From assembly GCA_050298595.1 (NCBI GenBank), contig JBNKUM010000031.1:1-10595 (forward strand): a DNA stretch of 10,595 nt, in the 5' to 3' direction. Source of the stretch: Gammaproteobacteria bacterium (lineage in GTDB: Bacteria; Pseudomonadota; Gammaproteobacteria; GCA-001735895). Made by a program: the position numbers and the translations under genes. Below the pieces are notes generated by a model. It had not been told where the DNA came from. It saw nothing but the letters and a program-made list of their open reading frames with translations, and made no database searches. Shown here in pieces: positions 1 to 10,595 of this stretch; within the stretch, counting starts at the first letter, position 1; each line of letters starts with the position of its first letter.

Positions 1-1
1 G

Positions 2-139
2 GCTGATAATTATGAAGAAGCAAAACAAAAGTGGAGAGTGTTCGAGCAATATCAGAGCGATTGTCTGCCAATCAGTGAAGAGCTATTGGAAGAGTTTGCG
101 CCCTTGAGGCAGAAGGTGATCAATTTTGGCTTACAGTAA
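2..139 (+). CDS. 3' end of a hypothetical protein (5'-truncated by the window), probable integron gene-cassette ORF
   Basis: Open frame from position 2 (ADNYEEAKQKWRVFEQYQSDCLPISEELLEEFAPLRQKVINFGLQ) to TAA at 137-139. The stop lies 3 nt before an attC R'' box, as is typical of cassettes. No family recognised. Confidence 0.7.
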   Translation, partial: ADNYEEAKQKWRVFEQYQSDCLPISEELLEEFAPLRQKVINFGLQ

Positions 140-142
140 AAC

Positions 143-199
143 ACATAACAAGGCAATGTTGCGGATTCGCTACGCTCACCGCAAATTGCGACGTTATCG
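143..199 (+). mobile_element. Integron attC recombination site
   Basis: R'' ACATAAC (143-149) and R' GTTATCG (193-199). Folds as ATAAC/GTTAT, unpaired spacer AAG/GAC, GCAAT/ATTGC, extrahelical G158, TTGCGG/CCGCAA, extrahelical A165, T166/A178, and terminal region TCGCTACGCTC. Length 57 bp. Confidence 0.88.
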
Positions 200-9459: not shown

Positions 9460-9629
9460 CAGGCTGTGTGAAAATACGCTTCAAACTGATGACACCAACA
9501 ATATTTTCCACTACGGGGTAATTTTTAGAGAATATTTAGAGTTCAATTAGCACAAATAATACGAAATTGATCCTATATAAGCCCGTATATTCCACTTGAA
9601 AAAATGGACAATGGTTTTCAAACAGACCG
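9460..9629. mobile_element. 170-bp MITE / internally deleted IS remnant (IS1182-like ends) with 4-bp target duplication
   Basis: Left IR CAGGCTGTGTGAAAAT (9460-9475) and right IR GTTTTCAAACAGACCG (9614-9629) match at 12/16. Flanked by direct repeat TGCC (9456-9459 and 9630-9633). AT-rich interior, no transposase. IS family is from recall of GGCTGTGTGAAAAC-type ends. Confidence 0.72.
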
Positions 9630-9670
9630 TGCCAGAAGCGGTCATTGATTAATTTACCTATGAATGAGAA

Positions 9671-9724
9671 TATAATGCAACATAAGTCAATATTTGTGCG
9701 TGTCACATAATGAAGCTGTTAGCT
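9671..9724 (+). other. Possible attI-like site / cassette entry point (G|TTAGCT at 9718)
   Basis: GTTAGCT core begins 28 nt before a cassette-like ORF and is not the end of an attC hairpin. Upstream are TATAAT (9671-9676), ATGCAACATAA (9675-9685) and an imperfect dyad ATTTGTG/CACATAA (9692-9710). Confidence 0.4.
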
Positions 9725-9745
9725 TAAAAAGGAAAGGAGATAGGA

Positions 9746-10087
9746 ATGGGTGCAATTTTCGAGTTGGTTTTAAGTTTCTTAATTGAAACAATAATTTTTA
9801 TTTTTGAAGTCGTAATTTGGAATTATATTCTTTTTTATATTGGTGTTACAGTTTTAAAGATAATTACTTTTTCTAACTATCCAACAGGTATGCAACTTGA
9901 GAAGCATGTAAATGTAATAAGTGGCGCGGGTCTAAATACCATTTATATTTTTTGGGCATGCATAGCCACATACAATTACAATGAAAACATATACTTTTTA
10001 ATTGCTGGTCTTGTTGTAGCAGTAATGCAATCATTGTTAATTGCAATAAAGTATTATTCTCGTGATAGAAATCAATATGGATTTTAG
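9746..10087 (+). CDS. Hypothetical membrane protein (about 4 TM), probable integron cassette gene
   Basis: 113 aa, very hydrophobic. Strong RBS (AAGGAGATAGGA). Visibly more AT-rich than the core genes. Bounded by GTTAG upstream and an attC left half downstream. Confidence 0.78.
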   Translation: MGAIFELVLSFLIETIIFIFEVVIWNYILFYIGVTVLKIITFSNYPTGMQLEKHVNVISGAGLNTIYIFWACIATYNYNENIYFLIAGLVVAVMQSLLIAIKYYSRDRNQYGF

Positions 10088-10108
10088 ATTGTGTTTAAAT
10101 CAAAAAAA

Positions 10109-10152
10109 AAATAACAACTATCTCCACAGGACACAAAAGTGCCGTTGCGCTC
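10109..10152 (+). mobile_element. Left half of an attC site, interrupted at its apex
   Basis: AAATAAC (R''), spacer AACT, ATCTC-C-ACAGG-A (L''-like with expected extrahelical C and A), CACAAAAGTGCCG, then TTGCGCTC, similar to CTACGCTC in the attC at 143-199. The complementary right arm is absent from the window. Confidence 0.65.
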
Positions 10153-10374
10153 GTGAGCGATCTGGGAAAAGGCTGTCTAGAACAGTCATGTGAGTATGAT
10201 GGAGATGAACGAAAGTGAACCCCTGATGCGGTGTCGAAATGGAGAACGTTGCTTGTCAAAACCTGGCTATGAGTGTAAGTCTGGGATAAGTCTTGATGTT
10301 AACTGGAATACAGGCAAGACGGCAGCTGGCATAGAGGGGGCATCAACACCATACATAATCTTTATAGACACCCA
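10153..10374 (+). mobile_element. Group IIB intron ribozyme domain I, RmInt1/class D-like, partial
   Basis: Collinear with RmInt1 domain I as recalled: GTGAGCG, GAyGAACGAAAGTGAACCC, GyGTCG, GTCrAAACC, CTGGGAyAAGTC, GGCrTAGAGGGGGCrT. Internal helices visible: GTATG/CATAC, CCCCT/AGGGG, GTCTTG/CAAGAC, and CCTGGCT/AGTCTGG enclosing the EBS1 loop. Confidence 0.8.
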
Positions 10375-10595
10375 GTGCGCCGAGATAAATCGGCAAAATA
10401 TTGGCGGTGAAAGTCCGCTACCTGGTAAGGATTAGCAATCCGCCAGGACCCCGAGTCATGGGCCGACCTCGTTGGGTGATAGGGAAGGCAACACAGCTTT
10501 ATCGCGTTACAGCGAGTGATAAGGTTGACTCTCCGGAGTCATAGACCTGATGCATGTGCTGATGTCTTTTGTGCGGAACTCGGGAGATCCTGAAG
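10375..10595 (+). mobile_element. Second group IIB intron (class E/F-like), 5' end and domain I, running off the window
   Basis: Canonical 5' GTGCG. Hairpins GCCGA/TCGGC, GCGG-TGAAAGT-CCGC, CCTGG/CCAGG. Motifs CCCCGAGTCATG, GCCGAC...GGAAGGCAACA, GGAAC.CGGGAGATCC. EBS1 TGGGTG (10473-10478) is exactly complementary to the upstream CACCCA (10369-10374). Possible alpha/alpha' pair TAGC (10433-10436) / GTTA (10506-10509). Confidence 0.88.

Follow-up and report, generated by a model that had tools for sequence, protein, structure and literature searches.

The window analysed here, a stretch of 10,595 nucleotides (nt), is the entire contig C31 (JBNKUM010000031.1) of a gammaproteobacterial genome in 119 contigs (G000). 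A Pfam scan of its genes recovered cysG, an HPP-family gene and genes for a substrate-binding protein, a hybrid kinase, a Na/H exchanger and two VF530 proteins. The window is not a cassette array: it holds housekeeping genes, together with one intact attC-like hairpin (146-198) and one interrupted attC site (10110-10152), of which the left half and the apex are present. Directly behind this half-site lies part of a group II intron, here called intron A. Our best explanation, to which we assign a probability of roughly 0.85, is that 10153-10355 is an inactive remnant of an RmInt1-type mobile intron and that base pairing guides its lineage (IIB3/class D-like, with no endonuclease (En) domain) to the central loop of attC sites. 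The pairing partners are the exon-binding sites (EBS) of the intron and the intron-binding sites (IBS) of the exon, and the features that bear on them are the following.

10110..10152, forward strand: left half and apex of an attC site, forming the 5' exon of intron A, with an R''-type box AATAACAA at 10110-10117, the left arm, IBS2 TGCCGT at 10140-10145 and IBS1 TGCGCTC at 10146-10152
10153..10355, forward strand: remnant of intron A, limited to part of domain I (nt ~125-327 of the 1855-nt full length)
10239..10244, forward strand: EBS2 of intron A, ATGGAG, pairing with exon positions -13 to -8; the homologous loop is present in RmInt1 and in locus L047
10262..10284, forward strand: EBS1 hairpin of intron A, with EBS1 GAGTGTA at 10271-10277, pairing with 10146-10152 at 7/7
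146..198, forward strand: intact attC-like hairpin, TAACAAGG...GTTAT, with apex TACGCTC at 171-177; ATAAC pairs with GTTAT in the fold

The initial annotation of this DNA had read the region as a group IIB intron whose EBS1 appears programmed against the attC apex, and the motifs that it named (TGCGCTC, GTGAGCG at 10153, GAGTGTA, AATGG at 10238-10242, CCGTT at 10142-10146 and TACGCTC) are all found where it placed them. The remnant itself contains no open reading frame (ORF) of the intron, no domain V and no domain VI. Its identity was established through relatives. Positions 10164-10355 are 93% identical to nt 1-191 of locus L028, on contig C59 of the same-genus genome G001, where the intron runs on into a reverse transcriptase (RT) ORF and domains V/VI (RF00029, 67.6 bits) and terminates ...CTACTCGAC. 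When window positions 9600-10374 were used as query against 41 genomes (this one and 40 related), 10151-10355 was kept at 92-93% identity in two same-genus genomes, and a third genome held a 79% fragment of it; an exact-pattern scan of genome contigs returned two loci only, both in those same-genus genomes. We also scanned metagenomes with a 223-amino acid (aa) segment of the RT and obtained 52 candidate stretches, 17 of which encode a relative, mostly at 85-91% identity. The 203 nt of intron A in the window are 84-92% identical to 15 of these 17 loci, and a probe taken from the 3' end of the intron found matches in 14 of them. Within its own genome the window copy was the sole match of the full intron, and in a self-BLAST 10100-10357 was unique and 10358-10595 repeated. 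Rfam gave no family at gathering scores anywhere in the window and left 10153-10374 blank even at relaxed thresholds, because RF01999 spans intron nt ~47-164, most of which is deleted here. The possibility that the only intron begins at 10375 and that the one annotated upstream is spurious was rejected, since 10153-10355 is conserved in relatives and continues to an RT and domains V/VI in G001.

The ends of the remnant are not the ends of the intron. GTGAGCG at 10153, taken at first for the intron start, is internal: eleven copies that reach the 5' end (ten metagenome loci and one in genome G004) carry ~124 nt of conserved sequence 5' of it. The native start, which lies before that sequence, is GTGTGTCATGAAG (GTGTGT...), and the native 5' end reads GTGTGTCATG in full-length copies. 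Alignment with these copies shows the deletion of the first ~124 nt, the window running from exon to GTG, then across the ~124-nt gap, to AGCGATC, with TCGTG common to both sides of the gap as microhomology. At the other end, similarity to the full-length intron stops at 10355. Both breakpoints are present in sequencing data. A 714-nt Logan contig (run X3) covers 9900-10395 with zero differences and bridges the junctions 10152/10153 and 10355/10356, and shorter Logan contigs of runs X1 and X2 bridge one junction each; all three come from a single study, which may cover the source sample itself. One X1 contig is a variant of 10197-10318 with EBS1 GAGCGTA and a repaired stem, and a less decayed copy of intron A is therefore present in that sample. 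Runs in which the window has a small share (X5 and others) match the repeat parts of the stretch only and are uninformative on habitat.

We propose that the window copy entered an attC site behind a 113-aa ORF (9746..10087) and that its first ~124 nt are missing either because cDNA synthesis was abortive and the end was joined by microhomology or because they were deleted later. Afterwards the end of a repeat, which is linked to an HUH transposase and bears a second intron, would have truncated the copy at nt ~327. The window copy is dead, with no function left, and its value is that of a pointer to the lineage.

Full-length relatives and their guide loops

In 10 of the 17 metagenome loci both intron ends could be located, which puts the length of the intron at 1853-1857 nt; nine of these 10 have an open RT frame of 417-426 codons. 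Domains V and VI score against RF00029 as highly in L044 as in L028, and at 66.6 bits in L037; the bulged A of domain VI, read by eye, stands 7 nt before the ...CTCGAC end. The RT of L044 (2196-3440, 415 aa) matches RVT_1 (151.9 bits) and GIIM (27.8 bits) and no other domain, with no En domain among them. The full-length relatives thus display the V/VI core, the RT/maturase ORF, the GTGTG start and the EBS1-IBS1 pairing of group II introns. L033, L034 and L035, with RTs 52-56% identical, were considered as further copies in attC sites; L033 follows ...GTTGACG without attC features and was kept as an outgroup.

RmInt1 is an intron of subgroup IIB3/class D with one copy on plasmid pRmeGR4b (PMC5894124), and it carries no En domain (PMC4075523, PMC5894124). 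The RT of L044 is 49.4% identical (397 bits) to a 419-aa protein encoded on pRmeGR4b of Sinorhizobium meliloti GR4, and the best plasmid match of the RT reaches 54%, on a Rhizobium plasmid. Among solved structures the same RT scores 157 bits with the GsI-IIC RT, 118 with LtrA and 116 with the 6me0 maturase reverse transcriptase. Similarity extends to the ribozyme: over domains I-III, 332 of 617 alignment columns are identical between intron A and the pRmeGR4b intron, and RF01999 (gathering score 36) is matched by L044 (93 bits), L037 (90) and the pRmeGR4b intron (114). The catalytic triad of domain V is AGC in intron A; a CGC triad marks group IIC. From its similarity to RmInt1, in a comparison that took in RmInt1 and solved IIC, ML-type and CL-type RTs, intron A appears to be an RmInt1-like, class D-like group IIB intron. 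It is not a IIC intron, because its triad is AGC and because it has an EBS2.

The stem of the EBS1 hairpin (10262-10268/10278-10284) forms 6 of 7 pairs in the window, where T10264 stands opposite T10282, and all 7 in relatives, which have an A there. The loop GAGTGTA pairs with TGCGCTC at 10146-10152 in all seven positions, two of them G-U, and with TACGCTC at 171-177 with one G-U (by eye), just as the initial annotation had stated. We aligned the guide loops of 12 sequences, namely nine copies of the attC clade, the window, the S. meliloti (pRmeGR4b) intron and a distant relative in genome G048. The EBS1 columns paired with exon positions -7 to -1 at 7/7 in nine of the 12 sequences, at 6/7 in two and at 5/7 in one. 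Four specificity groups were present.

attC clade: EBS1 GAG(C/T)GTA, IBS1 TGC(G/A)CTC
L050: EBS1 TGGCGAT, IBS1 TTCGCCA
pRmeGR4b intron: EBS1 TTTCGTC, IBS1 GATGAGA
G048: EBS1 CGTCAAT, IBS1 GTTGACG

EBS1 and exon of the same group score 6-7 of 7, those of different groups 1-6 and slid registers 0-6. That the pairing goes beyond chance follows from the comparison across relatives, by covariation, and not from the window alone. We conclude from these aligned sequences that the loop at 10271-10277 is EBS1, covarying with the 5' exon across the four groups, and structural alignment with RmInt1 agrees.

For EBS2 the loop named at the outset was the right one and the register was not: the best pairing uses 10239-10244 rather than 10238-10242, in the same helix and 1-2 nt off. 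Elsewhere in the lineage, the EBS2 loop ATGGAA of L047 stands opposite TTCCGT (-13 to -8) and TGTAG of G004 opposite CTACG, and in the pRmeGR4b intron ATGAA stands opposite TTCAT. The guides of the lineage, EBS1 GAG(C/U)GUA with EBS2 AUGGA(A/G) or UGUA(A/G), are complementary to CCG(C/T)TGCGCTC. In RmInt1, IBS1 occupies -1 to -7 and IBS2 -9 to -13 (PMC4075523), and the geometry of intron A (IBS1 at -7 to -1, IBS2 at ~-13 to -9) equals it. The EBS3/IBS3 pair of intron A was not located.

attC sites at the insertion points

The 5' flank of the remnant, ...GTGCCGTTGCGCTC, is a true 5' exon; what stands before the full-length copies is ...CCGCTGCGCTC, ...CCGTTGCACTC and the like. Its architecture is that of the relatives, with a TAACAA box upstream and ...CCG(C/T)TGCGCTC at the junction. 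Seven of ten distinct 5' exons (those of the window, L044, L042, L041, L047, L037 and L018) carry a (T/A)TAACAA box ~34-55 nt upstream, and the boxed exons end ...GC(G/A)CT(C/G). An R'-like box (GTTAGGC, GTTAGTA, GTTAGCC, GTTATGT or GTTGAGG) follows 20-50 nt downstream in seven of ten distinct 3' exons. The expectation that an attC right arm should follow the 3' end of the intron is therefore borne out in these relatives; for the window copy itself no such arm was found in the assembly. Eight loci carry both exons, and seven of them could be evaluated, the 5' exon of L039 being too short. At four of the seven (L037, L042, L043 and L044) the joined exons fold such that R'' pairs with R' and the junction falls at the apex, so that the exons of homologous introns rebuild attC sites there, as anticipated. 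These four rebuilt sites and the window hairpin at 146-198 all have the R''...R' hairpin form (RYYYAAC ... GTTRRRY).

The strand that carries the intron reads R''...R', that is, the top or cassette-sense strand. The motif occupies the 5' part of the unpaired central loop in one family of integron attC sites. Most full-length copies lie exactly after it, between the attC arms, and one intron variant (L039-L047) sits in at least four different attC left halves. Locus L036 (G013:C74, minus strand, ~2350-1150) is an intron A copy whose truncated 5' end falls within the RT frame; it lies behind a gene, where no attC can be recognised, and has the look of an ectopic and abortive insertion.

Empty sites of the same kind are also present in this genome. 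The hairpin at 146-198 has a 98% identical copy at C111:6618-6680 and is among the five most stable motif-bearing sites in the genome, all of which lie above the best control; judged by its sequence, it may be a target of the intron family that stands empty. Window positions 1-196, which include this hairpin, are duplicated in inverted orientation at C111:6618-6813, and C111 carries several attC-like sites, for example on the minus strand at 1557, 2021 and 3161. Integron integrase genes are represented by three TIGR02249 matches above cut-off. One of them, intI at C89:72502-73446 (466 bits, cut-off 265), has five attC-like sites downstream (by eye), and the left half of the first (C89:74321-74392, ~0.9 kb from intI) differs from the 5' exon of L047 at one position. 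The site is the unoccupied counterpart of that exon. Its TACACTC is fully Watson-Crick complementary to GAGTGTA of the window, and three or four of the five loops at C89 end CGCT(C/T) or CACTC (by eye).

The transposase-linked repeat, the second intron and neighbouring sequence

Three further features flank the interrupted attC site and the remnant.

9746..10087, forward strand: 113-aa ORF from the ORF list, on the same strand as the attC half-site 3' of it, a cassette-like arrangement
10356..10374, forward strand: outer end of the transposase-linked repeat, which truncates intron A and is the 5' exon of a second intron, intron B, with IBS1 CACCCA at 10369-10374
10375..10595, forward strand: 5' part of intron B (GTGCGCC...), unrelated to intron A and running off the contig end, with EBS1 TGGGTG at 10473-10478

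With TAATCTTTATAGACACCCA, from 10356 on, the window enters the outer end of a repeat found on ~20 contigs of this genome, where 16 copies of at least 100 nt were collected and aligned; uninterrupted copies read ..TTTATAGACACCCA|GCGATTGG. The repeat adjoins a gene for a 335-aa protein with an HUH-like motif. Against NF047646 (REP-associated tyrosine transposase) this protein scores 41.6 bits (E 1e-10), where the cut-off is 80, and its match to Pfam Y1_Tnp reaches no better than E 0.028.

Intron B is inserted at the repeat end, where its EBS1 TGGGTG pairs with CACCCA, and its 3' exon is the transposase-linked repeat. Rfam RF02005 (group-II-D1D4-6) matches 10410-10548 at 44.6 bits (gathering score 49), E 2e-11. 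Further copies in C46, C57, C100, C50, C49 and C28 all start GTGCGCC after (A)GACACCCA, and all repeated copies begin GTGCGCCGAGATAAATCGG. Its continuation, followed from C46 (25960-26532) into the ends of C14/C30, has domains V and VI and scraps of an RT frame only. Intron B is an ORF-less, internally deleted group II intron that homes into the outer end of the repeat. Its short 5' fragments in C100 and C50 share one internal end point (...GGATTAGCGATCC); a shared internal 3' end is odd, as retroelements usually lose the 5' end and not the 3'.

Just outside the repeat end lie tandem direct repeats of 11-17 nt that are particular to each copy of the repeat and include part of the end. They were seen at G000:C85:~253250-253290 (minus strand), in C12, C15 and C23, at positions 410-470 of locus L017 (G001:C131), and as AATCTTTATT x4 in G001. 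Copies of the repeat also lie beside integron integrase genes or fragments, at G000:C101:63041-63676, where the repeat starts 6 nt past a partial intI, and at G000:C99:136-4565, which hints that the transposase-linked element also favours integron regions. A repeat resembling a miniature inverted-repeat transposable element, with terminal inverted repeats of the type GGTCAGATAC...GTATCTGACC, stands just after one copy of the transposase-linked repeat (G000:C14, reverse strand, 595-760) and recurs in C21, C76, C61, C66, C111 and others.

No family was matched by the 113-aa ORF (9746..10087) in a Pfam scan. A 97% identical copy of it exists in G001:C131 (L017), where, on comparing L017 300-480 with window positions 10060-10160, the transposase-linked repeat begins 2 bases past the stop codon. 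In that genome neither attC nor intron A stands behind the ORF, and the same gene and the same repeat are joined at a different point. Immediately 5' of the 113-aa ORF, at 9629-9735, lies a ~95-nt repeat with at least 14 copies in this genome and further copies in five same-genus genomes at 84-95% identity. The 81-aa ORF at 10190-10435 and other ORFs across the region were set aside as chance frames; they match no family and span element borders.

Alternative explanations and comparison with known systems

Position, strand, pairing and the occupation of multiple attC sites are observed directly in the copies, and a mechanism can be sketched by analogy with RmInt1. The ribonucleoprotein (RNP) of the intron would reverse-splice into DNA that is single-stranded, as it is at a replication fork. 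The loop of a folded attC is already single-stranded, and an RNP unable to unwind or cut DNA could pair there, with the nascent DNA strand priming cDNA synthesis. Each attC of the family would then be a potential homing site, and these sites would be non-coding and co-transcribed with cassettes. That a class D (RmInt1-like) lineage has in this way taken the single-stranded loops of folded attC top strands as a dispersed, self-renewing homing site is a tentative proposal, and we hold it somewhat less probable than its opposite.

Several observations weigh against a lineage guided by pairing into attC loops. Among the ten distinct 5' exons, those of L050 and L051 have no TAACAA box, and that of L048 is too short to judge. 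The 3' exons of L040, L046 and L036 have no R'-like box, L036 lying outside any recognisable attC. At three of the seven evaluable loci (L040, L041 and L051) the attC halves mismatch each other; recombination between copies of the intron might account for this, as might chimeric assembly, to which metagenome contigs across a 1.9-kb repeat are open. At CGCCG, the commonest exon, EBS2 and IBS2 pair weakly, in 3 of 5 positions. In the assembly itself neither the rest of intron A nor the right arm of the interrupted attC was found; for the arm, a short-word BLAST queried with the left half and read for opposite-strand hits returned chance matches of at most 15 nt only. Genome-wide, the motif-plus-box attC pattern is not enriched (17 hits, as against 39 in a reversed-genome control), and only the five most stable real hits exceed the best control in stability; a fold-based attC scan was uninformative, with 13 candidates as against 33 in the reversed genome, and we take neither of these counts as evidence. 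Finally, the class D assignment draws on similarity to RmInt1, and the proposed retrohoming, like the proposed single-stranded target and priming step, is an analogy with that intron.

These points leave room for other explanations, of which the most serious is that the link to attC is passive, the intron having entered such a site once and then spread by cassette recombination, duplication or homologous recombination between copies. The mismatched halves at L040, L041 and L051 are as expected from recombination between copies (or from chimeric assembly), and flanks are shared, L044 and L041 having one 3' exon and L043, L042 and L039 another. We nevertheless consider passive spread improbable. 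At least seven different left-arm sequences precede the intron, and in L037, L042/L043 and L044 left and right arms that differ between loci match each other within a locus, which means that whole, distinct attC sites were occupied. Moreover, the EBS1-pairing motif invariably stands immediately 5' of the insertion point, and L050, in which EBS1 has changed, follows a correspondingly changed exon. In a second explanation the target is recognised by hairpin shape, as in IIC introns, and EBS/IBS complementarity serves only splicing after insertion. Every clear target is a hairpin, EBS2 pairing is often poor (3/5), and Sonbol and Siam raise a role of attC structure with IIB introns (PMC7923331), all of which would suit recognition by shape. 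However, the spacing of R'' and junction is variable, ~34 to 55 nt (by eye), whereas the pairing motif precedes the junction in every case; intron A has a 7-bp EBS1 helix and an EBS2, where IIC introns have 3-4 bp and no EBS2 (PMC7923331); and the distant relatives G048 and RmInt1 use the same loop at sites without attC features. Recognition by shape seems to us somewhat less probable still than passive spread.

We give next to no credence to a simpler reading of the window, in which the 5' end at 10153 (GTGAGCG) is intact and a single intron runs to the contig end. GTG at 10153 does resemble GUGYG, and intron-like sequence does continue up to 10595. Yet eleven copies have ~124 nt of conserved intron before GTGAGCG and start GTGTGT, similarity to the full-length intron stops at 10355, and from 10375 the sequence belongs to another family (RF02005 as opposed to RF01999) that is present in separate copies and pairs with an exon of its own, so this reading is refuted. 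On balance, the observation made in the initial annotation is confirmed, and its inference, that of an RmInt1-like IIB lineage guided by sequence to the attC apex on the top strand and distinct from IIC-attC introns, is supported by the RT, the ribozyme, the exons, the AGC triad and EBS2.

A class D intron guided into the attC loop was not found described in our searches of the open-access literature, which turned up only IIC-attC introns and loose associations of IIB introns with integrons; the account of attC insertion in one review gives it for class C (IIC) only (PMC4424553). Guidance of intron A into attC loops would mean that a second, unrelated lineage reaches attC by another route, through long loop pairing on the other strand, and would show that retroelements have converged on integron recombination sites as safe havens. 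Compared with IIC-attC introns, it would use the opposite strand and a different part of attC. It would also represent a natural retargeting of guide sequences from an insertion sequence (IS) site, that of RmInt1, to a recombination site, and it offers a hypothesis, testable by mutation, to explain a preference of introns without endonuclease for the hairpin loops of single-stranded DNA. Insertion parts the attC arms by 1.9 kb and, if our reading is correct, should block IntI-mediated excision there and lock neighbouring cassettes, so that the intron would directly shape the evolution of integron arrays. The relevance thus extends both to integron biology, as a split attC should stop recombining, and to the design of RmInt1-type gene-targeting introns.

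Among the known systems to compare with intron A are the IIC-attC introns, S.ma.I2 and its relatives, which likewise have attC sites as insertion sites. They belong to class C and enter the bottom strand at the R'' box (TTGT/T), opposite to the cassettes, using an EBS1 of 3-4 bp together with a hairpin and no EBS2 (PMC7923331, PMC4424553). Intron A, in contrast, lies on the top strand at the apex, in cassette orientation, with a 7-bp EBS1 and an EBS2, and has the AGC rather than the CGC triad. None of the traits that define IIC-attC introns (class C ribozyme, bottom strand, R'' box) is thus found in it. This genome also harbors two IIC-type introns. One (G000:C75:90217-92200, triad CGC) stands in the cassette array next to an intI gene (C75:87838-88698) and lies on the other strand from that gene. 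The other (G000:C108:~1180-1260) abuts an attC-like hairpin (C108:1262-1345) on the bottom strand of that hairpin, whose right half resembles the 3' exon of the intron A copy in G001.

Another group is formed by the integron-associated IIB introns UHB.I2, H.ha.F1 and H.ha.F2 described by Sonbol and Siam in 2021 (PMC7923331), which are non-IIC and lie in cassette arrays, in cassette orientation and beside attC-like hairpins. According to that report, a CL1 intron sits just after an attC without conserved exons, class E fragments without 5' ends occur in an attC cluster, and an IS200/605 element lies near one of the integron-associated IIB introns; pairing of the guides with attC is given there as something that could not be shown (PMC7923331). 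Intron A differs from these in being RmInt1-like, in lying inside the attC loop and in having an EBS/IBS pairing backed by covariation. An intron called IIC and located in the attC top strand, in cassette orientation, is cited in the same report (PMC7923331); it shares strand and orientation with intron A and differs in class. Intron A and RmInt1 are alike in several features: both have an En-less RT/maturase of ~415-419 aa, an RF01999 domain I, a GUGUG start and EBS1 in the same hairpin loop. RmInt1 homes into ISRm2011-2 (PMC5894124), whereas the lineage of intron A has guides for the attC central loop.

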